From a virus, in the IMG/VR virus record IMGVR_UViG_3300001450_010303, positions 32,001-96,000 of that record: a stretch of 64,000 bases of DNA. One strand, given 5' to 3'. The position numbers and the translations under genes were made by a program. The notes below the pieces were generated by a model. The model had not been told where the DNA came from, searched no databases, and saw nothing but the letters and a program-made list of their open reading frames with translations. How positions within the stretch are numbered: position 1 is the stretch's first letter; every line of letters starts with the position of its first letter. Below, piece after piece: positions 3,954 through 64,000 of the stretch.

Positions 3954-3960
3954 GGAAAAA

Positions 3961-8557: not shown

Positions 8558-8852
8558 AGATTTAACATTCAAAGAATATTATGAATATTATCTGACACTT
8601 CATAAAGATCCACGAACCCGACGCTTACATATACTTGGCCAGGCCGCTACAATCGTATATGTCGCTGGTATTATTTATACAAGTCTCTGGCCCCTACTAT
8701 TAGCTGCCCCTTTCGTTGTTTATCCATTTGCGTGGTCAGGTCACTTCTTTTTCGAAAAGAATACACCGGCCGCCTTTACGCGCCCAATTTGGGCAAAAGC
8801 ATGCGATTGGGTTATGCTTAAAGACACAATTACAGGAAAAATAGAACTATGA
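8550..8852 (+). CDS. DUF962/Mpo1-like membrane protein
   Basis: YYLTLH....RRLH, YPFAWSGHFFFEKNTPAAF. Confidence 0.8.
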   Translation: MNKDLTFKEYYEYYLTLHKDPRTRRLHILGQAATIVYVAGIIYTSLWPLLLAAPFVVYPFAWSGHFFFEKNTPAAFTRPIWAKACDWVMLKDTITGKIEL

Positions 8853-9778: not shown

Positions 9779-9785
9779 GAAAATT

Positions 9786-15908: not shown

Positions 15909-15909
15909 A

Positions 15910-20930: not shown

Positions 20931-20940
20931 GGAAATTAAA

Positions 20941-35329: not shown

Positions 35330-37126
35330 ATGAGTTCGGATCAAAAAAAGATAGTTCCTATCAACTATACAAATAGAGAATTTGAAGGGATAAGGCAAGA
35401 TTTATTAGAATTGGCCGAGCGCCTATATCCCGATTCTTTTCAAGATTTTAGTGAAGCTTCCTTTGGATCGCTAATGATAGATTCCGTAGCGTATGTCGGT
35501 GATCAGCTATCATTTTACATGGATTACAATATTAATGAATCCTTTTTGGATACGGCATATCAATATAACAATGTATTAAGAATGGGCCGTACAATGGGGT
35601 ACAAGCATACTGGACGCCCATCAACCTATGGTACCGCCGCCATCTTTGTAATAGTCCCAGCTAGCCCAACCGGTATTGGTCCAGATACAAATTATATTCC
35701 GGTCCTAAAAAGAGGCACCAGATTTTCATCTGATAATAATCTTAACTTTGTATTATTAGAGAATATAGATTTTTCTGATCCTAAAAATCCAGTAGTGGTG
35801 GCCAAAGTTAATACCACAACCGGCGCCCCAACATCCTTCGCAATAAAATCATATGGTAATGTGGTATCAGGATATTTTAGTCGCACTGATGTAGTTGTTG
35901 GCGCCTACGAAAGATTTAAGAGAATTAAACTTCCTATTCCTGAATTGGCAGAAATAATATCTGTCTTTGACTCCCAAGGAAATGAGTTTTACGAAGTAGA
36001 TTATCTATCCCAAGACATGATATTTAAGGAAGTAACAAATAAAAATTATAAAAACGACAACGTTCCATCAATTTTAAAGCCATTTTTGGTTTCTAGAAAG
36101 TTTATAGTAGAGAGAGACAGAAATAATGCTTATTTACAATTTGGCTCAGGGCAAATAGGTGACAGTGAGATAGTCGCTGACCCACAAACCGTCGTTATGG
36201 AGATCTTCGGAAAAAACTATACATCTGATACAACTTTTGATCCTACAAGGTTATCAAAAAATAAAAGTTTAGGAATAGTTCCTTCAAATACAACGCTATC
36301 AATCTCTTATCGTGTTACTAACCCTTCAAATTCAAATGTAGCTGTCGGATCATTAAACAGGGTTGGAAATGCTTTGTTCGATTTTGAAGATCGCTCGATT
36401 CTCAATAGCACCGAGATGGGAAATGTAATAGCCTCTCTTGAAATATCGAACGAAGAGCCAATTACAGGAGACGTTACAAACGCAAATACTTCTGAGATAA
36501 AAAGAAGAATATTTGATACCTTCCCAACACAAAACAGAGCGGTCACCCAAGCTGATTATGAAAATTTGAGTTATAGAATGCCAGCGAAGTTTGGGTCTAT
36601 AAAAAGAGTATCAGCGCAGAGAGATCCAGATTCCAAGAAAAGGAATCTCAATATGTATGTGATTTCAGAGGATAGCTTTGGAAAATTGGTCAGCACCAAC
36701 AAAACAATTAAAAATAATTTAAAAACTTGGCTAAATCAGCATAGAATGATAAACGATACTTTAGATATAATCGATCCCTATATTATTAATTATGGAATTG
36801 AGTTTATAATTAAACCATCCTCCGGCGCAGATAAATATATAACTTTAAATTCAGCGGTAGAAGCTTTAAAAGAAAGATTTAAGGCTCCAATGTATATTGG
36901 GGAACCAATCTATATAAGTGATATATATTCAACACTTAAAGAGTCTCCGGGAGTATTAGATGTTATAAAAGTCAGGCTCATAAATAAAACGGGCACGAAC
37001 TATTCAAACGCTAATATAGATATAAATAAAAATCTTTCTCCCAACGGAGATTACTTGATAATACCAAAGAACGCAATCGCCGAAATGAAGTATCCAGAGA
37101 GTGATATCCAAGGAAAAATTAGATAA
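35330..37126 (+). CDS. baseplate wedge protein, T4 gp6/baseplate J-like
   Basis: YTNREFEGIRQDL, DFSEASFG..MID.VAYVGD.LSFY.D...NESFLDTA, LQFGSG, QNRAVTQADY. Confidence 0.88.
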   Translation: MSSDQKKIVPINYTNREFEGIRQDLLELAERLYPDSFQDFSEASFGSLMIDSVAYVGDQLSFYMDYNINESFLDTAYQYNNVLRMGRTMGYKHTGRPSTYGTAAIFVIVPASPTGIGPDTNYIPVLKRGTRFSSDNNLNFVLLENIDFSDPKNPVVVAKVNTTTGAPTSFAIKSYGNVVSGYFSRTDVVVGAYERFKRIKLPIPELAEIISVFDSQGNEFYEVDYLSQDMIFKEVTNKNYKNDNVPSILKPFLVSRKFIVERDRNNAYLQFGSGQIGDSEIVADPQTVVMEIFGKNYTSDTTFDPTRLSKNKSLGIVPSNTTLSISYRVTNPSNSNVAVGSLNRVGNALFDFEDRSILNSTEMGNVIASLEISNEEPITGDVTNANTSEIKRRIFDTFPTQNRAVTQADYENLSYRMPAKFGSIKRVSAQRDPDSKKRNLNMYVISEDSFGKLVSTNKTIKNNLKTWLNQHRMINDTLDIIDPYIINYGIEFIIKPSSGADKYITLNSAVEALKERFKAPMYIGEPIYISDIYSTLKESPGVLDVIKVRLINKTGTNYSNANIDINKNLSPNGDYLIIPKNAIAEMKYPESDIQGKIR

Positions 37127-39180
37127 TGGCTATTAAAAAATACTATGCGATTGCTGATAACACAATTACAAACGCTTACAAACTAAATTTATCTACGAGA
37201 GCAACCGGCGCCAACGCCGGCGCCGCAGATATTATGGAGATCTATTCAATTTATGGCCGCCAATCTACATCTTCGGCTGAGATCTCCAGAGCACTGATTA
37301 AGTTCCCTGTATCCGAGATAACATCAGATCGAAGCAATTCAAAGATTCCAGCATCCGGAAGTGTAAAATTCTATTTAAAGCTCCATAATGCAGAACACTC
37401 TAAGACTGTACCAACGGGCAGTTTTACAATTGTGGCAGAACCAATCTCAGCGGATTGGGAAGAGGGCTACGGCCTGGATCTTGAGGCATACAAAGATATT
37501 ACCAATGGGAATAAGGGCTCAAACTGGATCGCCAGAAAGGGCGAAGGCTTACAAGAAATCACTAAGGTGACTTTCACATCGACGAACAAAGCACATTACG
37601 CAGCCGGCGCCGGCGCAAACTACATAATAGCATATAATGGTAATAGGGCTTATAATCTGTGGTTCAACAACGGATCTGATTCCGCACCATCAGCCGATGG
37701 CGCAGAAGTAGAAGTTGATATAAGTTCTGCTGGATCGAGCACTGCTGCAGTTGCTTCAGAATTTCAATCGACAACTAATGCTTTGGCCGCGTTTGATTCA
37801 AACGTTGACCCGACAAATTCTGCAATAGTATATCTATCATCAAGCCTCGAAGGCGGCCACACAGACACATCAGTTGAGGGAACTATATCCGGTATAACTT
37901 TGGCAGTTCAGCAAGATGGAAACAACGAGATACCATGGACAAAAGTTGGTGGAGATTACATTACAACTGCAAACGCTGCATATCCTTATCGCTGGTTTAG
38001 TCAAAGCTTCACTTCTGGGCTGGAAGACATAGAAATTGATATTACTCAAATGGTGGAGTTGTGGTCCGCTGGTACGGTTGATAATTATGGACTTGGAGTG
38101 CATCTTTCTGGAGCCTTCGAACCATATTTCTCAACCGATTTTGATCCAACATACAGTGGATATATACAGAATACAACCGGTTCAACGGTTTCATATTACA
38201 CAAAGAGACTCTTTGCAAGGGGCTCACAATACTTTTATAAGCGCCCAGCCATCGAAGCTAGGTGGGATTCTAGCAAGAAAGACGATCGCGGCAATATATT
38301 TTACAGCAGTTCTCTAGCTGGCGTTAATGATAACCTGAATACTTTGTTTTTATACAATTACGTCCGCGGCCAACTGGCTAATATCCCCTCAATTGGCACA
38401 GATGCAATATACGTGAGCTTTTATTCTGGGTCCGCGGACAACTCGGTACCTACTGGTAGCCTACAGACGTCTTCATACACCCCAAACCCCCCGGGCGCCC
38501 ACTCACGCGCAGCCATAGAACTTCCAACTACTCTCCCTTATCAATGGGTTGTCGACGATGATAGTCCAGACCCACCAATCAGTACAAACCCGTATGTTGT
38601 GACCGGCGCTTGGGTATCAACCGGCATTTATAGTGCTTCTTTCGCCATAACAGGCGCCACAAACCCTCTTACGAAGATATTCGATGTCTGGCACGATGGA
38701 ACAGGCAAGAACCACCCATGGGCAAGTGTGGAGTTCGCAACCTCCTCGTTCGAGCCACTCAACATGAGTGCTTCTTACTCTATGGCTGAGCCCACGTATC
38801 ATCTTAAAATAACTAACCTTAAAGACAGTTATAGTTCAAGTGAAAATGCACGTTTTAACTTATTTATTAGAGAAAAGAATTGGAAACCAACAATTTATAC
38901 AACTTCCAAAACAACCATAAAAAGTAAATCGATGTTGAGTGCTTCGTATAGAGTATTTAGAACGATCGATGCCCACGAAGCTATCCCATATGGAACAGGA
39001 AGCAATCTACACACCATGATGTCTTATGATAATATGGGAAATTACTTCGATGTAGATATGAGTTTATTAGAGCCTGGGTATGCATATGCCTTTAAGTTCT
39101 CATTCTATGATAGTTCGTTGAGTAGCTGGATAGAACAACCACAGACCTTTAAATTTAGAGTAGAGAATTATGAGCATTAA
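37126..39180 (+). CDS. baseplate-associated structural protein
   Basis: ADNTITN, SRALIKF, LKLHNA, DWEEGYG, NYGL, P.IEARWD (DNRLRE-like pattern); follows the gp6-like gene. Confidence 0.65.
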   Translation: MAIKKYYAIADNTITNAYKLNLSTRATGANAGAADIMEIYSIYGRQSTSSAEISRALIKFPVSEITSDRSNSKIPASGSVKFYLKLHNAEHSKTVPTGSFTIVAEPISADWEEGYGLDLEAYKDITNGNKGSNWIARKGEGLQEITKVTFTSTNKAHYAAGAGANYIIAYNGNRAYNLWFNNGSDSAPSADGAEVEVDISSAGSSTAAVASEFQSTTNALAAFDSNVDPTNSAIVYLSSSLEGGHTDTSVEGTISGITLAVQQDGNNEIPWTKVGGDYITTANAAYPYRWFSQSFTSGLEDIEIDITQMVELWSAGTVDNYGLGVHLSGAFEPYFSTDFDPTYSGYIQNTTGSTVSYYTKRLFARGSQYFYKRPAIEARWDSSKKDDRGNIFYSSSLAGVNDNLNTLFLYNYVRGQLANIPSIGTDAIYVSFYSGSADNSVPTGSLQTSSYTPNPPGAHSRAAIELPTTLPYQWVVDDDSPDPPISTNPYVVTGAWVSTGIYSASFAITGATNPLTKIFDVWHDGTGKNHPWASVEFATSSFEPLNMSASYSMAEPTYHLKITNLKDSYSSSENARFNLFIREKNWKPTIYTTSKTTIKSKSMLSASYRVFRTIDAHEAIPYGTGSNLHTMMSYDNMGNYFDVDMSLLEPGYAYAFKFSFYDSSLSSWIEQPQTFKFRVENYEH

Positions 39181-42100
39181 AAAGCTTTTTGGATCCACCG
39201 ACAAAGCAAACAATTACCTAAGCGATACAGACCAGAAAGATGCCTTCGCAAGTGTAGAATCCAGCAGAAATTTAAAAGAAATTGAGGAAATCCAGGCTCA
39301 TCATATACCTCATATAGACTATTCAAAGCCAGCTAATTTTGTGAAATACGGCTCGGCAAGGTTATACTATAAAACCGCATTGAAAAGAATTTCCGACTAT
39401 TATCCTTATGACGGTTCTAGTGCTGAGATTAACTCATTCTATAATAAATCTTTAGACATAGAGAAGTATATTCTCAATAATTTATATCCAAGAACAAATG
39501 GTTATGCTATATTTAGTGCCGATGGCTGGGGCAGTAAGGCTAGCAATTGGTCAGTTCATCGCCAAGACGGCTATGGCATACCAGCAACCCCCGAAGCTAT
39601 TATAGTTCAAGGTGGTCCAAATGCTGCGACCGGCGAACTAAAAGATCTGATACCCACATCAAAGAATAATAAGTATCAATATTCTAACGTATATGACGAA
39701 GATATCTATCGAACTGCTGGTCTTCCAAGTGATTATGGTAAGGGAACTCGCGAATCGAACATGCGTGCCAACTTCGATGATGGTGTCACAGTAGAATTTT
39801 GGATGAAGACTGGTTCCTTTACAGATGGGACCGGCACAGAAACCTTGAAACAAGTAGTGTTCGATTTATGGAATCGTAAAGATCCGAACACCGGCGCCGG
39901 CTTTGAAAAAGAATATGGAAGAATCACTGTAGAATTGACCGGCGTTGTACAGAACGATATAGACTACTCGGACCCCAATAGTTATTGGTCGGACTCGCCA
40001 TTCTTGGTCACAGTACAATCTGGCTCTGTAACCGGCTCCTACCAACAAACCATTGGTAAAAACATAACAACCAGCTCAATGGGTGAGTGGAACCACTATG
40101 CGATAACGCTGTTTAACTCCGGATCTGGATTCATGGCAGATTTCCACGTCAATGGGCATCTCAGTGAAAGAAAGACATTAAACGCCAGTCAAACATTGAA
40201 CGAAATTGCCCCGAAGAATATGGTAGCGCGTATAGGATCACTGCTTACCGCCAGTTGTGGCGCCCTCGAAAATCCCGGACCCATAGCAAGATTTGGTTCC
40301 ATTGATGGCGGCAAGCTAAACGGCTCGATAGATGAATTCAGATACTGGAAATCTGCAAGAACTCACGAAGAAATTGGAAAGAATTGGTTTGCTCAAGTCG
40401 CCGGCGGCGCTAATACTGATATATCTAATGCAGAACTTGGAATATATTTCAAATTCAACGAAGGTATTACCGGGGATGCTTCTCTCGACAACACTGTTTT
40501 GGATTATGCCGGTAGAATAAGCAACGGAACGTGGTATGGATATACATCAAATTCAAGAAACACCGGTTCTGCGATTATTGAAGCCGCGGCCGCAACAAAA
40601 GAATATGAGGATCCCATCATCCGGCCCGAACACCCGGATTATATTGCACTTGAATCAGAGTTATCAATAAGTGGTGAAAACTTTGATATAAACAACAATA
40701 ACTCAATGTTGAGCTTGCTTCCCGGGTGGATTATTGAAGAAGAAGAAAATAACAAGGATTCTGACTTACAAAACATATGTCATATTGTTGGTGCTTACTT
40801 TGATAAGTTGCATATGCAAATCTCTGAAATTCCCAAGTTTCATTATGCGACATACCCAAGTGCTTCCCAGAAGCCAGCACCATTCGCAGAACATTTTGCA
40901 CAGTCTTTCGGACTATACACGCCCGAATTGTTTATTGATTCAACAGTTCTGGAGAAATTCGCCGATAGGGATGAAGAACAGCTATTCGAAGCGAGCCTAC
41001 AAGACACAAAAAATCTAATTTACACCAATCTCTATAATAATATAGCTAATATCTTTAAAAGCAAGGGTACCGAAAAGGCTATAAAAAACGTGTTTAGATG
41101 CATGGGTATAGATGAAAAGCTGATAAAACTAGTAGTTAATTCTAATAATCAAGACATCTCTCTTAGAGACAACTATCAGCAGTCCTTGATCAATAAAAAC
41201 TGTTTAAATTTCAACAACAGCCTAAATTCAACAGCGGTTGTATATCAAGCAATTGATTCAAATAATGCAAACAGTTTAGGATACTTAACAAATCCAACAG
41301 AGAGTTCAGCGCCATCCTATGGTTGCACGGTAGAGAGTAACATAGTCCTTCCATACTACACACGCGGTATTGGGGACATGGATAGAGATTACGATACTGT
41401 ATCTTTGTTCGGAATGTATACAGTTGATACTACAAGCGCTGATTCTAAAACAGGAGCAGACCCATCCTTCATTGGAGGTTATGGTATAGATTCTACTGGC
41501 GGCGACGATGCAAACTTTCAAGTCTATGCAATTAAGGAATCAAAGGATTCCAGAAATGTATATTTTAAACTTTCATCATCGAATAAGCCAATACCGTTTC
41601 CAATCGATGTCGATAATGTCCTAACAAGTTCGCTGTTTTTGAATGCATATGATAATCAAGAGTGGAACATTTCTGTAAGGCTTAAGCCCCTCAAAGGTCA
41701 GCTAACAAACTTAGTTTATGGAGCCGGCGGTACCGGGTATGAAGTAATATTTTCCGGATATCAAACTCAACTCGGGGAAGTTATAAACAGCTTTAGTGTA
41801 TCATCGTCAGTTTCACAGACCACCGGTTCGTTGTTTATGCTAGCAGGCAAAAGAATATATGCCGGCGCTAATAGAGAAAACCTAACCGGCCGTGTCATCG
41901 ACAAAAGTGATATACTTGTCAATAATATTAGGTATTGGTCAAAATATTTAGAAGACAGTGATCTCATACAACATACACACGATATTGAAAACAGAGGCAT
42001 TTCAGGTTCTTATAGACCACTATCTCCCATAGACACGGGAAGTGTCGATATTATTAACTCCGAGACATTAGCCCTAGAGTGGAACTTTACTGATCTAACC

Positions 42101-45100
42101 TCAAGCCGCGCAGATGGAACTATAGGGTATATCAAAGATTATAGCTCTGGTTCAACTGATGTTCGTAACCCACATGGCAACAAAGCCTCATGGCTATCAA
42201 ATCTCGCTGGCTATCAACATACGGGATATGGATATGGGTTTGCAGCAGAATCTACAAATATTGTTGATAAACGAAACTTCAACTCATATAAACTGGTAGA
42301 TCCGGAGCGCGCCGTTTCATCAGACATGATAAACATTTATAATGATGAATACGATTCATTTTACAGAGATGACAACGTACCGAATTATGTATATACGATT
42401 GAGAAGAGCTTTTATAATATAGTGTCAGAACAAATGATGGAGTTCTTCGCTGGAATTGTCGACTTCAATAGTCTGATTGGCGCACCAGTCAATAGGTATA
42501 GAGATAGATACAAAGATATCGAAAAGCTCAGACAAACATTCTTTAAAAGAGTGAAGAGTGTTTCAGATGTTGAAAAGTTTGTAAAATATTATAAATGGTT
42601 TGACGACTCAATATCTAGCATAATTTCTCAACTTGTCCCAGAATCATCAGTATTCATCAATAACTCTATGAATGTGATAGAGAGTCATGTTTTAGAAAGG
42701 AACAAATATAGGTCTAAATTTCCAACGTTAAACTTTGAAGATCCGGATGTAGAGGCATATATGAAGGGCTTCACTGAATTGCGATACCCATGGTATGACG
42801 GTTCCTCAACATTGCCATCATCGCCGCGGAACACCGGTACGCACAAGACATATTGGCTTGATAGAGCAGAAAGAGATTCTATAGAGATAACGTCGGGTGA
42901 TTCCACAATAGATACCCAAAGAAATAAATATAAGGACATTATCAACCGCGCCCCACACATGACGGGAGCATATCCCACTTTGTCTGATGCCTCCGGCACC
43001 CTTTACTCATCTCACAAATACTCCTTAAATAAATTCGCCCGCACAAGTAAATTTAATATGGATGTGCCGGTTGTTAGAAACCTAACTCGACCAATTAAAG
43101 GTGGAACTAACTTTGAGCCCGAGAAAGACCTGAGTTTTGCACCGATAGCACTACATCCAGCCGGCCCAGTAAATAGAGAAAATGGTATTTTTGTTCCTAG
43201 AAACGTTTTGCTTGGAATGACTAAAGAGATGGTAGAAACTCAAAATATTGTTGATCCTACAAGACCACCGGAATTTATTTCGAAGGAAAAGAGAGTATTT
43301 AAGGTTCAACATGGTAGAGATTGGGAAGATGGGATAGGATATAAAAATGTTAAATCAAGTATCGGATTTCCTTTTAATGTATTAAGTTCCTCAGTTAAGA
43401 CTGGCTACAATAAAAGTGTAATAGACAATGTTACCGGAGGTATTGAGATTACAAACCTTCATAATGATACCTATGGCGATGATAAAGAAGTGCCAATGCA
43501 AGGTACATTTACTGAGAGGGTTGTTGGTGGCCACCAATCTAGACATATAGCAATCAACACCGGTACCGATAATTGGAAATCACGCCCTGAAGCTTGGAAA
43601 ATTCTACTTGGAACTTGTGAAGCTAATCCATCTGGTGCTATTGGAATGGTGGGTCCAGACTATCCATGGCCAGAGGCCAACGACGAGGGCCAAACACCAT
43701 ACCCCCTAACAGCATCACAAAAAGCTGTATTCTACAGAGATTTTGTTGCAAAGCGCCCAGTTAATATTAGAAACATAAATACGATGGATGTCCCGCGTTC
43801 AACGACTGTTCCTGGAAATTACGAGAACAATTATGAAGTAGTAAATTCCTTCGGCGCCCACGCAAACCCCCGCCGCTTCATAGATAATCAGCCGACCCCG
43901 CCAGAAAGAGCATTCAGAAATAATGTGACTGGCGCCACTCAAATAAGAACATTTTTAGATACTCGTAGGACAGATGAGAGCCATTCGGAATTGATGCCTG
44001 AATATTCAACAGAATATTTGCAAATCACAAGCTCTGAGAATAAAACTGTAATAGCTACTAGATTTTCTAATCCTGGTGGCCCCGAAACAATGACTAGAGG
44101 TTACTTGGACTTTAGATCAGCAGAGATGTCAGTTTATAACGCCTTTAATTATCGAAATCTAAGCATCATAAAACATTCACAAGGTCCAAGTGGAACACTC
44201 CCAGAACCCCCGGGTGATGGCCCGACTACAACCAGGGTATATGATATACATGCGAAAGACTATGGGCTGAGAAGTCACAGAGCAAGACACACAGCAAGAT
44301 TCGGCCGTGACTCATTGTTTGTTACTTCATCCGATAATCTCCCCGGCGCCCAATATGATCAGTTGCCGGGCTTTCACAAAATTCACAGAAACAATGTCTC
44401 GCGACTGAAGATTGTTGATCAATTAAACGCGGAGCTTAGCGGTATTTACTTAAATAATACTGCTAGTATATTATGGCCAGATCCATCCCAGAACGCTGGA
44501 AATTGTTTAGTAGTACAAGCAACTAGTTCAGACGGCCAGAACGCCGCCAATGCCCTCATCTTTGATAACAATCTTGTTGGCGCCGCAAACGAGTTCCCAG
44601 TCTGGACCTTCTCAGCGTGGGTTAATCCATCTGCCTCTAACGCACCAAGAACAATCTGGGACGCCGGAAAAACAAGCGTCGGGAATGGCTCAGCCCACAC
44701 AATCACGATTGAGGGTGATGAGACTTTGAGATATCAAGCTAAAACATCACTTGCCGCCGGCGGAGGTAACGAAAGATTTACATTTTGGGAAACCAATACG
44801 AATACAATATCAAATGGTTCATGGAATCACATTGTTGTAAGTGTATCCGGCACCATTGGAGGTCTGTCAAATTCACTCAAGCCTACTCTGTATATTAATG
44901 GAGTTAGTATGTCTTGGGACGGTGCTACTAGTCCATCCTTGACTCCGTATGATAATCTGCCAAACGCGCGCACTGCACATTCGAATTTCCGGAGTCATAC
45001 TGGTTGGAGCCAAACACCACCGGTAGTAATTGGAGGTGATTGGCAAAGTGCGAACTATAAAGAATACTATGGCGCCCTCGATGAAATATCAATCTGGAAT

Positions 45101-49627: not shown

Positions 49628-49629
49628 CA

Positions 49630-54710: not shown

Positions 54711-54734
54711 GAATATATGATATTAGATACAGAT

Positions 54735-54748
54735 ACTATTTAGTTATA
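54735..54748 (+). promoter_or_regulatory. candidate late promoter motif ACTATTTA(GTTATA)
   Basis: Intergenic, upstream of ATG 54759; resembles ACTATTTATAGTTATA at 805. Confidence 0.45.
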
Positions 54749-54758
54749 GGTATAAAGA

Positions 54759-55340
54759 ATGAAAAAAAATAAGAAATTACCAGAGATAGGAAGCTTAGAA
54801 GAAGACAGAGAGCATATGTTTATGTCGGACTTCAAATTTTCAAATAAGAAAATTCAAAATATTGGGTTAGCTCCAATGACAACAAAAATTCAAAAAGGCC
54901 TCGACATCCTGGAACAACAAGGAATTCTTCCCAAAGAAGAATTCAAAAGAAATCCAAACGATATAGCGGAAAGATTCTTATTCGGAATCAATTGTGTCCT
55001 ATCAGACGAAGATGTGGGATTCTCACTATTAGATTCCCAAACCGATCAAGAAGAAATACAAAATGTTAATATCTTCGACGCCCGAGAATTCTCAAATCTA
55101 AAAGCAAGCTATATAAAGACACCTGACAAATTTCAAGATGAATGTGATCCGTTTTATAATTTAGACGAGAGAATGCCAGAGAACATCAGAAGAATGAAAA
55201 AGATGCGAAAAGAAAAAAGGAAGCCATACTTGTTAAAAGTAGCCTCTCAAGCTTCACAAATAAATTTGAAGAAGACGAGAAACAAGAAAATAAGATATTT
55301 TAAAGACATAAGAAAACTTAGAAAAGCAGGAGAGTTTTAA
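54759..55340 (+). CDS. hypothetical protein with basic C-terminus
   Basis: 193-aa ORF, K/R-rich tail. Confidence 0.65.
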   Translation: MKKNKKLPEIGSLEEDREHMFMSDFKFSNKKIQNIGLAPMTTKIQKGLDILEQQGILPKEEFKRNPNDIAERFLFGINCVLSDEDVGFSLLDSQTDQEEIQNVNIFDAREFSNLKASYIKTPDKFQDECDPFYNLDERMPENIRRMKKMRKEKRKPYLLKVASQASQINLKKTRNKKIRYFKDIRKLRKAGEF

Positions 55341-56392
55341 TGGCGGACTACGGCGATATGTCACCCTCCACCCTTCCATGGGTTGGACTCTCAGAAGACG
55401 CAACAGATTACACCCCACCGATCTCTGTGGTGTTGGGTGACTCAATATTTGCCGATCTACCAGACGGCCACCAGCTTATGAGAAACAAAGCCTACTATTC
55501 ATTGCCAGATGTGGATATACATGGGTTTTTTAGTTCGCTTTCAACATTTGGGATCATCAGGAAGGATACAGTATATTCTGTGCCTGACATCGCTGGCAAG
55601 GACGACAGAAGAGAAACTGAACCAGGAATGGACTATATATATGGCGAGGAACCAATTGTCTATAAAGAAGCAACATTCGTTTCTTCTAACGAATCTGAGG
55701 GCTGGGATGACTTTAAAAATTATATTGGTAATGCCTATATAGATTCTCCATTTACTTGTTTTCGAGAAATAGAAAGGTATATGAATTGGTTTGATTACGA
55801 TGACGAAGAATTAGAATTTGGTTTTACTTGGAAAGACAAAAGCGCTGAGTGGAAACAATCAAATCAGCTGCGTTCGATCAATAAGCCAATAATCCACCCA
55901 AGCGGCGTAGAAATGAATTATATCAAAGCTGAAGCTCCATATATATATATTACTTCTGACAGATATACCGAGTCCGCGGTCTGGGCCGATCCATCTGATG
56001 GGTTCTCAGCCGAGATTTCAGAGGGATATAATCTATCGTCGCAAGTTACATACCCATCGTGGATGACGAATGATCTAGTAAAGAGGTATAAATCAATTAA
56101 TGCGGTTATGTCTAATATGAGTAGTTATATAGATGCACAAACACAATATTTAATGAATACGGGTTATCGAACTGTTCTTAAGAGACAGCTGGCATCACGA
56201 GCACAAACAGTCACACGATTTATGAATAAGGAGTTCACAACGATGGCCGGCGGTAGTACTATATCGACGCAAGCCTCTGCTCAAGCGTTAGTACCAGGCG
56301 CTACCGCCCTCCCCACAACACCTACGACCCTGGAACCATCGACAATCACACCCATCGAAGACCCGCTCGGACCGGCCACCGGAGACTACTAA
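55340..56392 (+). CDS. hypothetical protein with Pro/Thr-rich tail (putative virion protein)
   Basis: 350-aa ORF, stop/start-coupled to the upstream gene. Confidence 0.65.
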   Translation: MADYGDMSPSTLPWVGLSEDATDYTPPISVVLGDSIFADLPDGHQLMRNKAYYSLPDVDIHGFFSSLSTFGIIRKDTVYSVPDIAGKDDRRETEPGMDYIYGEEPIVYKEATFVSSNESEGWDDFKNYIGNAYIDSPFTCFREIERYMNWFDYDDEELEFGFTWKDKSAEWKQSNQLRSINKPIIHPSGVEMNYIKAEAPYIYITSDRYTESAVWADPSDGFSAEISEGYNLSSQVTYPSWMTNDLVKRYKSINAVMSNMSSYIDAQTQYLMNTGYRTVLKRQLASRAQTVTRFMNKEFTTMAGGSTISTQASAQALVPGATALPTTPTTLEPSTITPIEDPLGPATGDY

Positions 56393-56393
56393 T

Positions 56394-59300
56394 ATGCCTG
56401 ACCCCGAACTTTTCTTTCCGGCAGGCTCGGTTGCCCCGTCCGGACCACCACTGTACTCAACAGCGTATGAAATAGACGATTCGCATGTATATACTTTTGT
56501 TGGACATGGCAATGTGGAGGGCGACGGAAACTATTTAAGAGAAGAAATAGGGAATATTTGGTCTATCATCGACGGGAAAGAAGAAAACCAGTCACTCAAC
56601 ACTCGGGCACTTCCGTTATATAAGACTGAAAACTTAAACGGTATTGAAGTATTTCGTGCCAATAGTCGTTCAAGATATATTAAAGCGGTGGAGATTAATC
56701 CTTGTACGGTTAGAGTTTTGGAACCCACGCTAGCGGTACCAAATTATTTAATACCCGTTAGATTGTATTCCGAACTAAACTTACCTGGCGGCGACCTATT
56801 TTGGAATACTTTATTTAGAGGAGGCCAAATCGGAGAGGGCAATTATACATCTCTGCTTCCTTCTGATGCTGTTTATTACAACACAATGTTTAAATATTCA
56901 ATTCCATACACGATTCTGGAAATGAAAAAAACTGGGATAAGTTCAACCACCGCAGAACCAACAAATGTAGGATATGAATATAATGCATATCTTCACAGAT
57001 ATGAATCATCAGTAAGCAATAAAAAATCAGAACTTCTTATTCCAAATTATTATATGTTTAAATACATAAAAGGGGCCAATGCTTCATATAAACAATATGC
57101 CACGTTAGAAAAAAAGGTTAGCTTAGATATTTTAAGAAATGATTTATTTAAAAACAGAACTCGTTCATTCTCTTATTTAGAAAAAGATTTTTCAGGCTAT
57201 AGTTTTTCTCCCACACTCGAAGATGAAGTTACTAATTCACAGAAAAACATACTGTTCGATGATAAATACTATGAGAAAGAAAGGTATGACACAACTCAGC
57301 CAATGCCACAGAACCTATTCCCATACGGAGTTAGAATCTCTATGCCGAATGATTCTGGAATAATAGAGAAAACTTCCAAGAGTAAGTATCGTATTAGAGA
57401 TTCTATAATGAAGAACGATTTTTCGTCAAAGTTTTTGGAAATATTAAAAGATGTATATGACGAGAGTTTCCCGGATATAGCTCCGGGCTACTTAGAATAT
57501 ACTGTACAAAAATCCTCATTAGCTAAATCATCGACGCCACGTACGGGCCCACAGAAGGTTGAGACCAACACAGTTAATAAGACACCTTATAAAACAATAG
57601 ATTTTCTGGAGTTTTTAACACTTATATATAACAACTATTCTGCGTCTCTCAATGACGATTATTCCTTTGTGGGAAACGCCCGGGCTGCAGCCGCCGAAAG
57701 AAGCACGACATACTCGGCCACCGGATTTGACAGATATTTCAACAATAAGAATGTGATGGCAGTTCTAAATGATACAATCAAATATTCTAAAACCATTCTA
57801 AATGCAGATGATCTAAAATACATGAACTTACAAAATGTGATTAATATACAGGAGAATCCTGTAGAGACTTTAGCTTATAGAATTGAAAAAGTCGCCGGCC
57901 AACAATCGGAGAATTCAACAAATAAAACAGTTCTACAAAACTTCTGGATGTTCAATTCTTCCCATATGAAAAACTTGGATTTATTTGACACTCAGGTCAA
58001 ATATGGCGAGAAATACACATACAATTGTTATGCATATGTTGTGGTTCCCTCCTATAGATATAAATATACGAATCTGAGGCTAACTAAACAAATAGCTAGA
58101 ATAGATACAGATGGCGATGGAATCCCGGATCAATACTGCATGCAGTTTTATGATCCAGCAACAAATAACTACGCAGAACAACTATTCTATGATGGTGCGG
58201 GGATGGTTTCATCCGCGCCTGGTTCATCGATTGGGGCTGTAGATTTTGAATCCGGTCCAACTGGAATGATAACTTCACCCGAGTCTGCAATGCCAGTTAG
58301 TGATGGTGAGGGGGTCGACCCGTGGCCTCCGACCACGGTTGAACCGATGAGCTACCAGGGCCAAGACAAAGACGAAGAAAAAAAGAGGAAGCTAGAAGAT
58401 ACTCTTCAGGGTTCCTCCGATGGCCTGGGCGGCGGAGGCCACCATGCCGGCAGCGGACAGAATTGGAACCACGGAAGTTCGGGCGATCCGACTCATGATA
58501 ACCCCCCCGCCGGCGGCCCGGGCTATGTTGAGGGCGCCGGAGGCGGCTATGCCAGTCCCACCACCGGGTGGCGGTTCGGCGCGATGGAGGATGAGGAAGG
58601 AGAAAGCATCGGCGGCGAAGGCATGGATGCAGATGTATTCGCAGAGTTAATGGATGTCATCAATAATCTCAATACGGGGCTGAGTTCGGAAGACTTCGCC
58701 TCCTTTATGCAAGGCGCGACCTTTGGCGGCGGCGGCGGCGACGAAGATGGCCCGGGCCACGATTCAGGCGGCTCCGGCGACGGCGGCGGCAGCGAAAGCG
58801 AGTGGTACGAAGCCCCCGGGGCCGATGAAAACCTCGACGGCGTTCCAGATGACGAGCAAACACCTGCGCCGTACGTCCGCAAGAACACCGGCGCCACATG
58901 GGGCATCGGCATCGCCGGCCTCCCGGGCAGCCACTTCAACGATGCGGCCACTTCAACGAGCGTCCCCTATAGTTTTACAGTTCCTGGTACCAACTGGACA
59001 GTCCCCGGCAATGGCGTCGCCGCCGTAGTCAAGGGGTCTTGGTTGAAAGCCGGAGACTGGACCGACGCCGACCAGGCCGCATACGATAAACGTTGGTGGG
59101 CTGCCCGGCAGGCCAATACCCCCGGCAACAAAGTCGAAGTAGCAAGTCCTTTCACGCAAGGAGGAGAATCCGGTGGCGGCTCAAGAAGCATTGTTAGAAG
59201 CACAACCACTCGACCAATAAGAGACCCGTATGGTAGCAGCCCTTACTCTAACGTCCAAGCCATGTCCAGTACTGGATATTCAGCCCCCGCGGGCACTACC

Positions 59301-60881
59301 GGCGGTAGCCCATATCCAGGGTCATCCATGCCCGGCGGCGGCCCCGCATTCTATGAGACCCCGGGCGCACCTCCTGATTACACTGCACCCGACCCTAGCA
59401 CGTTTGGCCCGGGCACGACTTCCGGCGGCACAACCGGCACAATAACAGTGCCTTACTCCCCAGTTATGCCAGGATTTACAGCAATCACAACCTGTAAAAC
59501 ATCAATATTGGCTACAAGAAATGCATATGCTACAAGCCAGCAAGACATGAGTGATAGTCCGCACGTGGCAGACTTCTACTTCCATGTAGAGCCGTGTTTT
59601 AAGGTTATAGAGATCCCCATGTTTTCAAAAACACAACAAGTTTTAGATCATCCCGGTAATGGAGCATCGATATATCCATTTCAATACATAGATGATTCGC
59701 AGAGAGTAGGATTTGAAACATCATATGAGAGTCATGTGCCAAAAGAATTCCCGACAGTTATAACAGCCGAAGATCAGGTTAAGAAAGACGACTACTTGTT
59801 CGCAAATAATTTGCTTTTAAAAGATATCATAAACGCAAAAACGATCTCGCGAGCAAGATATGTAGAAGTCTTTAGAACATCTGTCAAACCAACAAGTTAC
59901 GGAGATTTTGAAGGAAATCTCTTAAGCACTCTCGATCTTAGAATAGAAGATACAGAGTACGTCTTTGCTGACACAGTTTATGAATCGGAAATTGACACTA
60001 ACAAAAAATATTACTATCTATTTAGATTCCTGAACGAACATATGATGATAAGCCACCCATCTGAAATAATGGAATGTGAATTAGTTAATGATGGAGGATA
60101 CAAATATGCTATTTTTGGCGTACTATATGAGCAGCATCTCCGCACCGCACCACCAAAGAACACAACAATCTCCATGAAGAAACTTCTGCAGATACAACCT
60201 AATATGAGCCAAATTACACTTGACACAACCGACGTTGATTTTAATAAAAAAGCAGCCACTCAAATAAACAAAGTCAATGTTGGGGTTGCTAAAGAATTGA
60301 TTTGGGGAAAACGATTTAAAATTAGAATGATTTCTAAGAAAACCGGAAAGAAAGTAGATCTGAATATTAAATTTAAAATGCAAGAAGACCCTGAAGCGCC
60401 CGTCAAGTCCGCCCCACCCGGAATGTCTGTGGCGCCAGAGCCATCGCCCGGAGCGCGCTGGGAGCACGAGACTGAGGTTACAGTGACAATAGAGGAAGAG
60501 GAAGAGTGGTGGGATGATTTGGGAGATACAGACGCTTACAGAGAAGGCACAGATGTACCAGAAGAAGGTTATGGTGGCGACGGCGCGCTATACCCACCGG
60601 TCACGATGGAGCCAGACCCGGTCTTGCCATGGCCAGATACCGACACAGATTATGGATTTTATGAAACCGGCCCCCCCGAAGGAATGTCCGGACCCTCGAC
60701 TTATGATGGTTCAGGCGATGGCCCTTCCTTTTATGAAGCCGGCCCTTACACCGCCCCCTCGACTTATGATGGTTCAAGCGATGGCCCTTCCTTTTATGAA
60801 GTCGGCCCTTACACCGGCCCCGACGATACCTTCACAGGCGCCGAGATGACATATTACGAGTGGGATCATGACTGGGAATAA
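56394..60881 (+). CDS. large putative structural protein (1495 aa) with Gly/Pro/acidic low-complexity insert and repeat tail
   Basis: Fn3-like segments (DTQVKYGEKYTY, NKKYYYLFR) flanking a GC-rich disordered insert. Confidence 0.7.
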   Translation: MPDPELFFPAGSVAPSGPPLYSTAYEIDDSHVYTFVGHGNVEGDGNYLREEIGNIWSIIDGKEENQSLNTRALPLYKTENLNGIEVFRANSRSRYIKAVEINPCTVRVLEPTLAVPNYLIPVRLYSELNLPGGDLFWNTLFRGGQIGEGNYTSLLPSDAVYYNTMFKYSIPYTILEMKKTGISSTTAEPTNVGYEYNAYLHRYESSVSNKKSELLIPNYYMFKYIKGANASYKQYATLEKKVSLDILRNDLFKNRTRSFSYLEKDFSGYSFSPTLEDEVTNSQKNILFDDKYYEKERYDTTQPMPQNLFPYGVRISMPNDSGIIEKTSKSKYRIRDSIMKNDFSSKFLEILKDVYDESFPDIAPGYLEYTVQKSSLAKSSTPRTGPQKVETNTVNKTPYKTIDFLEFLTLIYNNYSASLNDDYSFVGNARAAAAERSTTYSATGFDRYFNNKNVMAVLNDTIKYSKTILNADDLKYMNLQNVINIQENPVETLAYRIEKVAGQQSENSTNKTVLQNFWMFNSSHMKNLDLFDTQVKYGEKYTYNCYAYVVVPSYRYKYTNLRLTKQIARIDTDGDGIPDQYCMQFYDPATNNYAEQLFYDGAGMVSSAPGSSIGAVDFESGPTGMITSPESAMPVSDGEGVDPWPPTTVEPMSYQGQDKDEEKKRKLEDTLQGSSDGLGGGGHHAGSGQNWNHGSSGDPTHDNPPAGGPGYVEGAGGGYASPTTGWRFGAMEDEEGESIGGEGMDADVFAELMDVINNLNTGLSSEDFASFMQGATFGGGGGDEDGPGHDSGGSGDGGGSESEWYEAPGADENLDGVPDDEQTPAPYVRKNTGATWGIGIAGLPGSHFNDAATSTSVPYSFTVPGTNWTVPGNGVAAVVKGSWLKAGDWTDADQAAYDKRWWAARQANTPGNKVEVASPFTQGGESGGGSRSIVRSTTTRPIRDPYGSSPYSNVQAMSSTGYSAPAGTTGGSPYPGSSMPGGGPAFYETPGAPPDYTAPDPSTFGPGTTSGGTTGTITVPYSPVMPGFTAITTCKTSILATRNAYATSQQDMSDSPHVADFYFHVEPCFKVIEIPMFSKTQQVLDHPGNGASIYPFQYIDDSQRVGFETSYESHVPKEFPTVITAEDQVKKDDYLFANNLLLKDIINAKTISRARYVEVFRTSVKPTSYGDFEGNLLSTLDLRIEDTEYVFADTVYESEIDTNKKYYYLFRFLNEHMMISHPSEIMECELVNDGGYKYAIFGVLYEQHLRTAPPKNTTISMKKLLQIQPNMSQITLDTTDVDFNKKAATQINKVNVGVAKELIWGKRFKIRMISKKTGKKVDLNIKFKMQEDPEAPVKSAPPGMSVAPEPSPGARWEHETEVTVTIEEEEEWWDDLGDTDAYREGTDVPEEGYGGDGALYPPVTMEPDPVLPWPDTDTDYGFYETGPPEGMSGPSTYDGSGDGPSFYEAGPYTAPSTYDGSSDGPSFYEVGPYTGPDDTFTGAEMTYYEWDHDWE
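60693..60818 (+). repeat. in-frame 63-bp tandem duplication (2 copies; PSTYDGS[G/S]DGPSFYE[A/V]GPYT[A/G])
   Basis: 60693-60755 and 60756-60818 differ at 3 positions. Confidence 0.95.
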
Positions 60882-60907
60882 AAAAATAGTTAAACACGGA
60901 TATTATT

Positions 60908-61918
60908 ATGGCTTTTAAAAAGACAAGCGGCACGATTGTTATTGACGCAACTTTAACCGAATTAGGTCGAGAAAAAATGGCTAAAGGAGAATTTTTAATT
61001 TCGAAATTCGCTTTAGGTGACGATGAAATTGACTATAGCCTATTTGATAAAATTATAAAACATGATGAGGACGGGATCCAAGCCACCAAGATAGCGGCAA
61101 TGTTGGAAGCATATTCAAATAAAAATTCTAACATTACGTACGGTCCAACCACACATATAAGCCAAAATATACTGTATCTCCCAGAGCTTAAGGTTAATAA
61201 TAGATTAAGTTTTTGTCCGGATATCTATCATGATGTTCATTATCTATCAGTTAATGATGAAACTTCCGAAAAGATAAATCTGATCTTCGCAAATTCGTTT
61301 AAATACTTGGAATCAAGTACAACAGAAAAATCTAAACTAGTAATTGAGAGCGGCTTAAACACACCTGAAATTCGCCCAGAACTTAAAAATAGAGATAAGT
61401 ATCTATTAAATTTAGGTTTGTTGGACCAATACTCATATGTCATGTGTGATGCTAGATTTATAGATTCTATGATGGCATCAGATAAAAGCAGTAAATTTCA
61501 AAATTTTCCAAACGGAGATTATAAAATTAATTTCGAGACACTGACGGCTGCCGCACCCACCTCACACAATAATGGTTTCAGATTTTATAGAACATATTTA
61601 TGTAATATGATCCCTAATTTAATGACAGATTATGAATCTTTCACTTCCCCAGGCCTTGAATTTTCGAATATTCTCGGCCCGCGCGGCACCGTCATGGCCA
61701 CAAACTATTCTGTCGTGTCAAGCCTTAGAACAAATTCCGATGGCGAAAGAGACAAAAGATGGACTAAATACGGCGAAATCGATCAAGTATTATTTAGCGA
61801 AGAATACGTAACACAATACAAGTTTGATTATATAGAAACAACTATATACATAGTAGGCGCAATCTCACATGCGTCAATTCAGGTACCTGTGAGATTATTA
61901 AGATATTCAGGAACTTAG
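60908..61918 (+). CDS. structural protein, tail-collar-like N-terminus (paralogue 1)
   Basis: IDATLTELGREKMAKGEFLISKFALGDDEIDY; C-terminal FDYIETTIYIVG. Confidence 0.7.
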   Translation: MAFKKTSGTIVIDATLTELGREKMAKGEFLISKFALGDDEIDYSLFDKIIKHDEDGIQATKIAAMLEAYSNKNSNITYGPTTHISQNILYLPELKVNNRLSFCPDIYHDVHYLSVNDETSEKINLIFANSFKYLESSTTEKSKLVIESGLNTPEIRPELKNRDKYLLNLGLLDQYSYVMCDARFIDSMMASDKSSKFQNFPNGDYKINFETLTAAAPTSHNNGFRFYRTYLCNMIPNLMTDYESFTSPGLEFSNILGPRGTVMATNYSVVSSLRTNSDGERDKRWTKYGEIDQVLFSEEYVTQYKFDYIETTIYIVGAISHASIQVPVRLLRYSGT

Positions 61919-61949
61919 TATTTAAAAAGTTTTATTATAGTGCTATAAT

Positions 61950-61975
61950 CTATTTAATAACAAAAACACTAATTA
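61950..61975 (+). promoter_or_regulatory. candidate late promoter motifs CTATTTA and ACTAATTA
   Basis: AT-rich intergenic region before the GAGG RBS and ATG 61997. Confidence 0.45.
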
Positions 61976-61996
61976 TTATAACAAAGAGGTAAATAA

Positions 61997-62989
61997 ATGG
62001 CTTTCTTAGACAATTCCGGAGACATCATTCTCGACGCCGTGCTCACAGAGATCGGCAGAAGAAAAATGGCTAAAGGAAACTTTTCAATTAAAATGTTTGC
62101 TCTTGGCGACGATGAAATCAACTATAAGTTGTATAACAAAAACCACCCGTCAGGTTCAGCTTACTATGATCTGGAGATATTACAAACTCCGATACTGGAG
62201 GCCTTCACAGAGACAAATGCTGGAATTAATTATGGCCTTTTGTCCCACGGTAACACCAACTTGATGTATATGCCGGTTATGAAAACAAACGAAAAAGTGC
62301 CAAACGCGGCTATCAAGAGTGAATCCGGTTTTTACTACTTGTCTGTTGCTGATGGAGTCACTGCAGACGCCATCATTGCTGCCCTGGGAGGCTCCTGCGA
62401 AAACGCAGGTCAGTATGTACTTCAATCCGGAGCCCACACTGGAACAAAGATTATCTCCGAGATAGGATTAGATACAAAAGAAATATCGGCCACAACGCAG
62501 AACAGAAATAATTATCTGGATTCTAACAACCTAACAGACACCGGAATATCTGTTTCGATTGACACGAGATTCTTATCGAGCGTACTAGGGGCCGCTAGGG
62601 GAAGTATATTTAGTAATGGTGGCACTGAGGGCCGCGAAAAAATTCAAATTAACATGTCCCGCACCGCTGCCGGCCGAACGGATCGCAATCTTCCAAACCA
62701 TAGGATAGCCACAGTGAAAGCAATTAGAAATCAAGTTGTGTTTAGACAGAACGACAACCGAGCAGACACGGCAACATCAGTGATGAATGGCCCCCGCGCC
62801 AGCGCGACAGCATTAAACTTTGATGCTAAGAGCCTCACCAACGACGATTTTAGTCGACATGGTAAAACTTCACAAGACCTGTTTGGAGATGGTAACACAT
62901 ATGATTATATCGATACAACAGTGTATGTTTCCGGAGTGTCCTCGGGCGCAACCCAACAAATTAGTTTAAGGTTAATTAAAAAAGCATAA
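61997..62989 (+). CDS. structural protein, tail-collar-like N-terminus (paralogue 2)
   Basis: LDAVLTEIGRRKMAKGNFSIKMFALGDDEINY; C-terminal YDYIDTTVYVSG. Confidence 0.7.
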   Translation: MAFLDNSGDIILDAVLTEIGRRKMAKGNFSIKMFALGDDEINYKLYNKNHPSGSAYYDLEILQTPILEAFTETNAGINYGLLSHGNTNLMYMPVMKTNEKVPNAAIKSESGFYYLSVADGVTADAIIAALGGSCENAGQYVLQSGAHTGTKIISEIGLDTKEISATTQNRNNYLDSNNLTDTGISVSIDTRFLSSVLGAARGSIFSNGGTEGREKIQINMSRTAAGRTDRNLPNHRIATVKAIRNQVVFRQNDNRADTATSVMNGPRASATALNFDAKSLTNDDFSRHGKTSQDLFGDGNTYDYIDTTVYVSGVSSGATQQISLRLIKKA

Positions 62990-63010
62990 TATGATAAATG
63001 GAGAAAAGAA

Positions 63011-64000
63011 ATGCCAATAAAAAGTTTTGAACCCCTAAATCCTAATACGGATATAACCACCACAAGAACCTTCTTGCATGAGGTGGTGCCGGTAACAGGT
63101 GCTATTGTTAGTGGAACATATGGTGTATTTACGACAGAAAACAATATTAAAAATTATACTCATGGCCAGTTTCAATCTGTATATGACTATCCATATTTAA
63201 GTTCCTCAGCAAACCATATATTTGATATAACAATGGGCTACGACGAGAGTTCTGCGCTATCGCATTCTGCCTCAACGCAAAACAGCAAAAAGATCAATAT
63301 GTATAATCAATTCTCGCAGTTGTTATTGGGCTACACGGGTTCTGATAATACGGTCAGAGTGTTCGAAAGTGATCTGGTCTTAGACCTTACGGGTTCAATG
63401 AAAGAGGTGTATTTTGTTAACTTTTCTCGATTGCTCACCAAGGATCAAATCAAGAAAGGATCCGTAGAGATTAAACTTGGCCGCGGCGCGATGCGCGGCA
63501 CTGACGGTAATGCCGGCTGCGCATTTGTTGATACAGGCTCTAACTCGAAAGTAATAACCTTGACAGACGCCTCAGCTTCGGTGGATGATACCGGAACGTT
63601 TAACACTCTTGGGGGAGACTATGGTGTTTTGTATGACGCCGGCGGCGCTGGTGCGACAGACACAGGCATTGGAAAAGGAATCATATTCTACCAAGCCGGC
63701 GTCATGGTTTTGACGGCATCGATTTTCTCTTCTTCGAATGGGAATTTAGATGATTACTGGAAATACGAAGGCAATTCATGGAGTGTAACACAATCCATGA
63801 TGACCGGAGCAATCAGCGCTTCATGTGACGCTCTCAGGCAACGAATTCAAAGCGTCTCGTTTAATAACACAACCGAGATTAATTCAACAATCTACTTCTG
63901 CCGCGTACCACACAATAAATTCAACTACAGTACAAACCCAACGTATATAACCGGAAGCAAGTTGAGAGTTAAAAACACTTCGGGAGATCCATCAGTCTCA
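63011..64000 (+). CDS. putative structural protein, 3'-truncated by the window (absent from the ORF track)
   Basis: GGAG RBS, then MPIKSFEPLNPNTDITTTRTFLHEVVPVTGAIVSGTY...SVYDYPYLSSSANHIFDITMGY; appears open to the window end. Confidence 0.75.
   Translation, partial: MPIKSFEPLNPNTDITTTRTFLHEVVPVTGAIVSGTYGVFTTENNIKNYTHGQFQSVYDYPYLSSSANHIFDITMGYDESSALSHSASTQNSKKINMYNQFSQLLLGYTGSDNTVRVFESDLVLDLTGSMKEVYFVNFSRLLTKDQIKKGSVEIKLGRGAMRGTDGNAGCAFVDTGSNSKVITLTDASASVDDTGTFNTLGGDYGVLYDAGGAGATDTGIGKGIIFYQAGVMVLTASIFSSSNGNLDDYWKYEGNSWSVTQSMMTGAISASCDALRQRIQSVSFNNTTEINSTIYFCRVPHNKFNYSTNPTYITGSKLRVKNTSGDPSVS

Follow-up and report, generated by a model that had tools for sequence, protein, structure and literature searches.

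A conserved [ST]-[GAS]-S motif in outer tail proteins of a marine phage lineage, a candidate O-glycosylation acceptor site paired with two phage glycosyltransferases

Introduction

A 64,000-nucleotide stretch of viral DNA (bases 32001-96000 of a 105-kb viral contig, IMG/VR record IMGVR_UViG_3300001450_010303; the whole stretch is referred to here as the window) raises the question of what its glycosyltransferases modify. The glycosyltransferase genes lie on the same strand as a tail module, 14-33 kb upstream of it. The original prediction was that the structural proteins encoded at 37126-64000 carry many [ST]-[GAS]-S tripeptides which serve as a common acceptor site for these adjacent glycosyltransferases. 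To our knowledge, glycosylation of phage particles has been chemically shown only in a few actinobacteriophages, and we know of no acceptor rule for any tailed phage. Here we report that the motif is enriched and conserved in four tail proteins, that it occurs together with a pair of adjacent family 4 glycosyltransferases, GT4a and GT4b, and that O-glycosylation of the motif is, tentatively, the best single explanation.

Results

The motif is enriched in four tail proteins

The [ST]-[GAS]-S motif was counted in each open reading frame (ORF) and compared with 300 composition-preserving shuffles. Four proteins had a clear excess: the 684-amino acid (aa) baseplate-periphery protein (15 sites against 5.3 expected, z 4.5), the 3485-aa giant tail/baseplate protein (44 against 14.6, z 7.8), the fibre-family protein encoded by the terminal ORF, which is 370 aa when complete (10 against 2.2, z 5.1), and its 432-aa neighbour just past the window (9 against 1.7, z 5.8). 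For the three proteins on which the prediction had been built, the counts are thus as high as had been noted (at least a dozen in the 684-aa protein, many in the other two) or higher. When the four proteins were pooled, 78 sites were found against 23.5 expected from independent residues and 34.2 expected from a first-order Markov (dipeptide) null (P 9e-11), an excess beyond both the S/T/G composition and the dipeptide content. In an unbiased scan of all tripeptides, TGS, SAS, SGS and TSS ranked highest in the enriched proteins only; they were not in the top list of the others.

The motif had been taken as a trait of the structural proteins in general, and this holds for the 684-, 3485- and 370-aa proteins but not for the rest of the module. 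There was no enrichment in the 2326-aa protein encoded upstream (4 against 4.7), the gp6-like baseplate wedge protein (0 against 1.7), the 1185-aa protein (3 against 2.9) or the 1495-aa protein (1 against 4.9), and the 350-, 336- and 330-aa ORFs within 37126-64000 were at or below expectation. The enzyme cluster held 5 sites against 6.5 expected; the low count was as predicted, but composition alone explains it, and there is no special rarity. Within the enriched proteins the sites were not clustered and their neighbourhoods were not rich in small residues.

The motif is directional and has hydrophobic flanks

The order of the residues matters: TGS occurred 18 times against 8 for SGT, TSS 14 times against 3 for SST, and SAS 15 times against 0 for SAT. 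The tripeptides AGS, GAS, AAS, ASS and GGS were at or below expectation, with no occurrence of GAS or AAS. The residue before the motif (position -1) was hydrophobic in 54% of the sites and the residue after the last Ser in 55%, against a background of 31%. Charged residues were depleted upstream, acidic residues at position -1 making up 5% (background 11%). With hydrophobic flanks on both sides, the motif becomes Phi-[ST]-[GAS]-S-Phi, where Phi is a hydrophobic residue, so the tripeptide excess was correctly noticed but the true motif is longer than three residues. The 78 sites represented 71 different 9-mers and used all six Ser codons, and the motif is a protein-level signal. At family scale, control motifs with one position substituted gave ratios near 1.

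Motif sites are conserved in otherwise unrelated sequences

A search with the 684-aa protein gave more than 3,400 hits, which make up a very large marine family. In 120 members of this family, the motif occurred 1736 times against 438 expected (ratio 4.0); of the sites in the 684-aa protein, seven recur in at least 103 of 119 homologues (identity down to 46%), and one more does so in 99 of 119. The 432-aa family had 1308 sites against 279 expected (ratio 4.7), with five sites kept in 104-120 of 120 members. For the giant protein (32 sequences, the window's own and 31 orthologues), the ratio was 3.6 in the N-terminal half and 2.7 in the C-terminal half, and sites 993, 1406 and 977 were conserved in 26-29 of about 31 orthologues while other sites turned over. 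At conserved sites, S and T exchanged freely at position 1 and G, A and S at position 2, and the Ser at position 3 was near-invariant. Most of the excess lay in conserved columns (12, 10 and 22 columns). The variable C-terminal halves of the giant orthologues were considered as independent replicates and dropped, as clustering linked all of them by homology.

Does the motif mark a domain that is repeated within these proteins or shared between them? When nine slices of the family alignments were compared profile against profile, no homology beyond trivial overlaps emerged (self-comparison control 100%), and no Pfam or PHROG family covered the motif segments as a curated repeat model. BLAST among the tail proteins gave minor matches only, namely a weak similarity of the 370- and 432-aa proteins in their C-terminal parts and a patch of 57 residues common to the 684- and 511-aa proteins. 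On these comparisons a shared domain was rejected, and the sites are dispersed and free of detectable repeats as originally described. The segments that carry the motif have no detectable homology to one another and are otherwise unrelated in sequence. The pattern identifies it as a short linear motif, presumably kept by selection, at about 10-20 fixed positions per protein in four unrelated tail/fibre families.

The patch in the 684-aa protein, which resembles residues 59-115 of the 511-aa protein (49630-51165), lies in an inserted module (residues ~140-260, modelled with a predicted local distance difference test (pLDDT) score of ~90) that is missing from many homologues of 500-545 aa.

The motif occurs together with the GT4 pair

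Relatives were located with the gp6-like wedge protein as anchor. Complete relatives are about 190 kb, so the 105-kb contig holds roughly half of a genome. The complete relatives G004 and G005, whose 684-aa homologue is 42-45% identical, had their genome-wide enrichment in the same four orthologue groups. Pooled by class over three genomes, the four groups had 2.9-4.1 times the expected number of motifs and the rest of each genome 1.0-1.4 times, while the other tail-module ORFs were mildly depleted (ratio 0.54-0.69; 32 against 52.3, P 0.002).

The adjacent GT4 pair was present in all eight relatives with contigs reaching far enough. Epimerase genes were absent from G006 (98% complete) and G009, both of which keep the GT4 pair, and the giant protein of G006 keeps the motif despite the lack of epimerases. 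Thus, the GT4 pair is core and the sugar-supply module accessory; indeed, the content of the accessory glycan module varies between relatives. The motif persists in relatives without nucleotide-sugar genes, so of all the enzymes encoded here the conserved GT4a/GT4b pair (3910-6503) is most likely the one that matters. The idea of a common acceptor for the adjacent glycosyltransferases is therefore partly supported by the excess, its conservation and the co-occurrence with the GT4 pair, but not with the whole adjacent cluster as the writer.

Going by the wedge protein (31% identity), Flavobacterium phage vB_FspM_immuto and Microcystis phage Mel-JY01 are the closest phages in culture. In both, the motif was enriched in the syntenic tail proteins (module totals 2.7 and 2.9 times expectation), and GT4a and GT4b have orthologues there that keep their order (32% identity, E values as low as 3e-62; the lowest for GT4a in immuto, at 32%). 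The C-terminal domain of the 370-/432-aa family is common to fibre proteins of immuto, Mel-JY01 and Rhodothermus phage RM378, and among 50,697 GenBank phage records the same seven hold both a GT4a homologue and a homologue of the 370-aa fibre family. The known hosts of the lineage are Bacteroidota, Rhodothermus and cyanobacteria. Glycosyltransferases are also reported among the core genes of the 'moraphages', a possibly related lineage (PMC12619734).

A relative without the GT4 pair was sought for a comparison of orthologues and none was found among the eight informative relatives, immuto, Mel-JY01 and RM378. The comparison with phages lacking the cluster was made with three other myoviruses that have neither a PF00534 gene nor a GT4a homologue, and none of them had a comparable enrichment, even in giant proteins of ~3,300 aa. 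The 22 structural proteins of T4 had 38 sites against 36.5 expected (ratio 1.04), cyanophage S-RIM44 had 25 against 23.8 (ratio 1.05; 12 against 12.4 in its giant protein of 3328 aa), and Salmonella phage Munch had 22 against 14.5 (ratio 1.5; 8 against 6.0 in its giant protein of 3342 aa). An uncultured 484-kb phage with a GT4a-like gene showed intermediate enrichment (18 against 9.4). This GT4a-like gene (LR756508.1 305408-306427) has one in-frame TGA, which could reflect recoding, a frameshift or a broken gene.

Some proteins outside the four groups also had raised counts. The 1060-aa tail sheath and a gp13-like neck protein of G004 (loci L074:12194-15376 / L074:16870-18168) had 9 sites against 4.1 and 6 against 2.3, respectively, and the gp13-like protein of RM378 had 3 against 0.5; the portal of G004 was not enriched.

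GT4a and GT4b are apparently active enzymes

In both GT4a and GT4b, the C-terminal PF00534 (Glycos_transf_1) domain scored above the curated cut-off of 26.4 bits (Table 1). GT4a and GT4b both have the E-x7-E motif, as do all of their orthologues in G004, G005, immuto and Mel-JY01, and by these sequence features the pair is apparently active. Analysis of immuto DNA by liquid chromatography with ultraviolet detection and tandem mass spectrometry revealed dA, dC, dT and fdPreQ1 only (PMC10516641), a result that speaks against a DNA substrate for the pair and makes DNA glycosylation an unlikely task for it in immuto. The spread of hosts over Bacteroidota, Rhodothermus and cyanobacteria argues for a phage-intrinsic substrate. 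The GT4b orthologue of G004 (gene 53229-55223 on L069, 664 aa) has an extra C-terminal domain that appears to resemble a GT2-type glycosyltransferase.

The nucleotide-sugar pathway part of the glycan module spans 8849-22841. It contains a PfkB-type kinase (22104-22841) closest to heptose-7-phosphate kinase (HldE domain I), with 101 bits against a cut-off of 345; an adenylyltransferase for an ADP-heptose donor pathway was not identified. The pathway also includes a split thiamine pyrophosphate (TPP)-dependent E1-like pair and a B12-radical S-adenosylmethionine (SAM) enzyme (11298-12448, 9714-11297). Together, these predicted enzymes point to an unusual sugar, possibly heptose-derived or branched.

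Structural context of the motif sites

The AlphaFold model of the 684-aa protein (pLDDT 66) is a chain of Ig/FN3/macroglobulin-like sandwiches, and its fold search returned generic matches to such sandwiches only. The model of the 432-aa protein (pLDDT 65; ~90 in core residues 130-330) gave no significant match in the fold search. In the confident regions of both models, the motif sites are predicted at the starts or ends of strands; in the 432-aa protein, site 213-215 would form the two-residue turn of a beta-hairpin and site 264-266 would cap a strand. Several conserved sites fall in low-confidence segments. As judged from the confident parts of the two models, these sites at strand ends and in one hairpin turn are not in obviously buried positions.

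A different arrangement was seen in the 1053-aa trimeric fibre of immuto, which has 60 motifs against 20 expected. Here the motif is the core of short tandem [ST]-[GA]-S-[YF] units that repeat every 4-6 or 9 residues. These units are covered by no known family, and a weak YadA-head match lies outside the arrays only. The arrays could be a fibre-building unit, or by analogy a Ser-rich acceptor stretch as in serine-rich-repeat adhesins and in L. buchneri SlpA, which has acceptor stretches of the Ser-Ala-Ser type (PMC5796085). Residues 810-956 of the same fibre (L087:35287-38448) resemble the head repeats of trimeric autotransporter adhesins (BpaC, E 6e-10).

Discussion

What, then, do the glycosyltransferases of the window modify? 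We propose that the [ST]-[GAS]-S motif is an O-glycosylation acceptor site. This is the best single explanation, with a rough probability of 45%. It is preferred because it explains a degenerate motif in unrelated sequences, both dispersed and arrayed, the restriction of the motif to particular outer tail proteins, and its pairing, throughout the lineage, with two soluble and apparently active glycosyltransferases that are unlikely to act on DNA or on a host-specific structure. By analogy, the combination of dispersed strand-end or turn sites with fibre arrays would resemble glycoproteins that mix isolated sites with Ser-rich stretches. The Ser of the motif, probably the near-invariant Ser at the third position, would be O-glycosylated by soluble GT4a and GT4b, which would act in the cytoplasm on the tail proteins before or during assembly. 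The variable downstream module would supply and elaborate unusual sugars. More tentatively still, the system as a whole may be a sequon-directed, phage-encoded cytoplasmic O-glycosylation in which the core GT4 pair starts a glycan on the motif Ser at fixed positions of the outer baseplate and fibres and a fast-exchanging nucleotide-sugar module diversifies it, the system being core to an ocean-abundant lineage with hosts in at least three phyla.

Several observations weigh against the acceptor role. GT4a and GT4b gave generic GT4 family matches and no link to a known protein glycosyltransferase. The phages with the pair all have related tail modules, so pair and motif may occur together through one common inheritance. 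As an independent test RM378 is mixed and only partly consistent with an acceptor site: it has the glycosyltransferase pair and some enriched proteins of unknown role (8 against 1.8; 6 against 1.2), yet its homologue of the 370/432 family is not enriched (1 against 1.1). Lineage-specific sites reach only 1.1-1.7 times expectation, with little sign of ongoing gain. Both structural models are mediocre. The hydrophobic flanks and the tandem units of the immuto fibre fit a structural unit.

Such a unit is the strongest alternative, a real possibility that we rate behind the acceptor site. The motif would be an unmodified strand-end or tight-turn element of a tail/fibre architecture specific to the lineage, in which two hydroxyls point to one face, the small residue packs between its hydrophobic neighbours, and [ST]-[GA]-S-[YF] units can stack in fibres; the GT4 pair would then have another target, for example a polysaccharide, a lipid or the host envelope. 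Immunoglobulin V domains contain a Phe-Ser-Gly-Ser strand element as a structural feature, and the 684-aa protein is built of Ig/FN3-like sandwiches. The small middle residue between hydrophobic flanks, the hairpin and strand-capping sites of the 432-aa model, the periodicity of the immuto arrays, the concentration of the excess in conserved columns, and the RM378 fibre-family homologue without the motif are all in line with a structural unit. On the other hand, the same degenerate motif recurs in families and segments without detectable homology, and it is not enriched in the beta-rich tail, baseplate and fibre proteins of T4, S-RIM44 and Munch, nor in the other large tail proteins of the same phage. 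A structural unit would also not predict a strict Ser at position 3 over ~40 independent sites, or the mild depletion elsewhere in the tail module.

It is improbable that recognition of the motif in trans serves some other end than glycosylation, such as phosphorylation, acylation or another Ser modification, or binding of a chaperone or partner subunit. The features that hint at recognition in trans leave the chemistry unspecified; however, we saw no kinase, acyltransferase or dedicated chaperone co-varying with the motif, as the GT4 pair does, and forty-four chaperone sites in one protein are implausible. Chance, composition, dipeptide content, low-complexity sequence or a DNA-level signal has a negligible probability, for although the enriched proteins are Ser/Thr-rich (S 10-12%), these causes were rejected by the shuffles, the Markov null, the local composition and the variety of 9-mers and codons, and the sites are conserved across hundreds of homologues.

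An acceptor site of the proposed kind would have parallels in known systems. In mycobacteriophages, virion O-glycosylation is said to have been chemically demonstrated by Freeman et al. in 2023, with glycans reportedly on C-terminal stretches of capsid and tail-tube subunits. Both cases have phage glycosyltransferases encoded near the structural genes, with proteins of the phage's own virion as their proven or proposed target. Unlike that system, the present one is a candidate, in myoviruses of Gram-negative and cyanobacterial hosts, and the C-terminal capsid and tail-tube layout was not found: the short motif is dispersed in baseplate and fibre proteins, although the capsid and tube proteins themselves were not identified. 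Mimivirus fibrils and chlorovirus capsids are glycosylated with unusual sugars by virus-encoded nucleotide-sugar pathways and glycosyltransferases. There too virus genes decorate their own surface, and chlorovirus B736L is among the best PDB matches of GT4a; however, these are eukaryotic viruses with different enzymes and acceptor rules.

GtfA/GtfB, the GT4-like pair of serine-rich-repeat O-GlcNAcylation, also has acceptors of the Ser-x-Ser type, to which the tandem Ser-rich arrays of the immuto fibre may be compared. GtfB is non-catalytic, whereas both phage proteins keep E-x7-E, and the sites in the window are isolated, flanked by hydrophobic residues and outside low-complexity repeats. With E-x7-E intact in both and only generic GT4 matches far below the family cut-offs, the analogy was not supported.

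The bacterial heptosyltransferases TibC/AAH are soluble enzymes that glycosylate the autotransporters TibA/AIDA-I, folded, beta-rich surface proteins, in the cytoplasm at multiple sites, specific for Ser and not Thr (PMC4358343). This precedent indicates that multi-site, Ser-specific cytoplasmic glycosylation of beta-rich proteins is feasible. The proposed system would share a soluble GT-B-type enzyme and many Ser sites on beta-rich protein, and the window encodes the HldE-like heptose-7-phosphate kinase; on the other hand, the phage enzymes are of the GT4 family and not members of the TibC/AAH family, the acceptor context differs, and no heptosyltransferase model was among the Pfam/NCBIfam matches of the phage enzymes, which were placed in GT4/GT2. 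In Bacteroidota, general O-glycosylation uses the sequon D-[ST]-[AILMTV] (PMC5796085), likewise three residues long and found across many proteins, and Flavobacterium is one host of the phage lineage. The Bacteroidota system, however, is periplasmic with lipid-linked glycans, and the phage motif has a hydrophobic residue rather than Asp at position -1.

The present analysis ties a sharply defined motif to a specific enzyme pair throughout an abundant lineage of the sea, with homologues by the thousand in metagenomes, those of Tara among them. Since three members of the lineage, immuto, Mel-JY01 and RM378, have been cultured, the idea is directly testable. If correct, it would provide a predictive sequon for phage glycoproteins, explain large glycan gene islands in phage genomes without export machinery, and bear on the encounters of tail fibres with hosts, proteases and grazers at sea. 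If not, the motif would still mark an undescribed structural unit of tail fibres.

Gene layout and additional features of the window

All genes of the window are on the + strand (Table 1). Apart from the gp6-like protein, the scanned tail-module proteins had no PHROG match and, in Pfam, a single LamG-like domain.

Table 1. Position of the glycan genes and tail-module genes in the window
Feature	Position	Strand	Remarks
PhoH	831-2171	+	heads the glycan gene array
GT4a, family 4 glycosyltransferase, GT-B fold	3910-5244	+	PF00534 50.4 bits; E-x7-E intact; core gene of the lineage, candidate writer
GT4b, GT4 paralogue	5220-6503	+	PF00534 33.2 bits; E-x7-E intact; always directly downstream of GT4a
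Accessory glycan module	6496-22841	+	GT2, GT1-like, several epimerases/dehydratases, GDP-mannose 4,6-dehydratase, DegT aminotransferase
Accessory glycan module, further members	6496-22841	+	B12-radical SAM, TPP-dependent E1-like pair, UDP-glucose dehydrogenase-like, methyltransferase, HldE-like kinase
gp6-like baseplate wedge protein	35330-37126	+	first tail-module gene; motif 0 against 1.7 expected
684-aa baseplate-periphery protein	37126-39180	+	directly after the gp6-like gene; tandem Ig/FN3-like beta-sandwiches; 15 motif sites
3485-aa giant tail/baseplate protein	39170-49627	+	LamG-like domain aa 1812-1986 (Pfam); 44 motif sites
511-aa protein	49630-51165	+	weak motif enrichment, 4 against 1.4
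1185-aa, 193-aa, 350-aa and 1495-aa tail-module ORFs	51153-60881	+	internal negative controls; motif at or below expectation
370-aa fibre-family protein (N-terminal 330 aa inside the window)	63011-64000, end at window-equivalent 64123	+	10 motif sites
432-aa neighbour of the 370-aa protein, just past the window	window-equivalent 64148-65446 (L001:1249-2547)		9 motif sites

The octamer ACTAWTTA occurs eight times in the window, which is the level expected by chance (8 against 8.2). All eight copies are on the + strand (positions 777-812, 26719, 35306, 49552, 54735, 56530 and 61968), and six are 17-47 bp upstream of start codons. The genes behind them include PhoH, a 387-aa ORF, the gp6-like gene and the ORFs at 54759 and 61997. 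This placement suggests a putative late-type promoter common to the glycan array and the tail genes.

Within the gene of the 1495-aa tail protein there is a GC-rich stretch (58001-60000, 52% against ~40% around it). The region 60908-62989 encodes the 336- and 330-aa proteins as adjacent paralogues (33% identical, without motif enrichment); at the N-terminus both resemble proteins of ~205-219 aa from immuto, Mel-JY01 and RM378.

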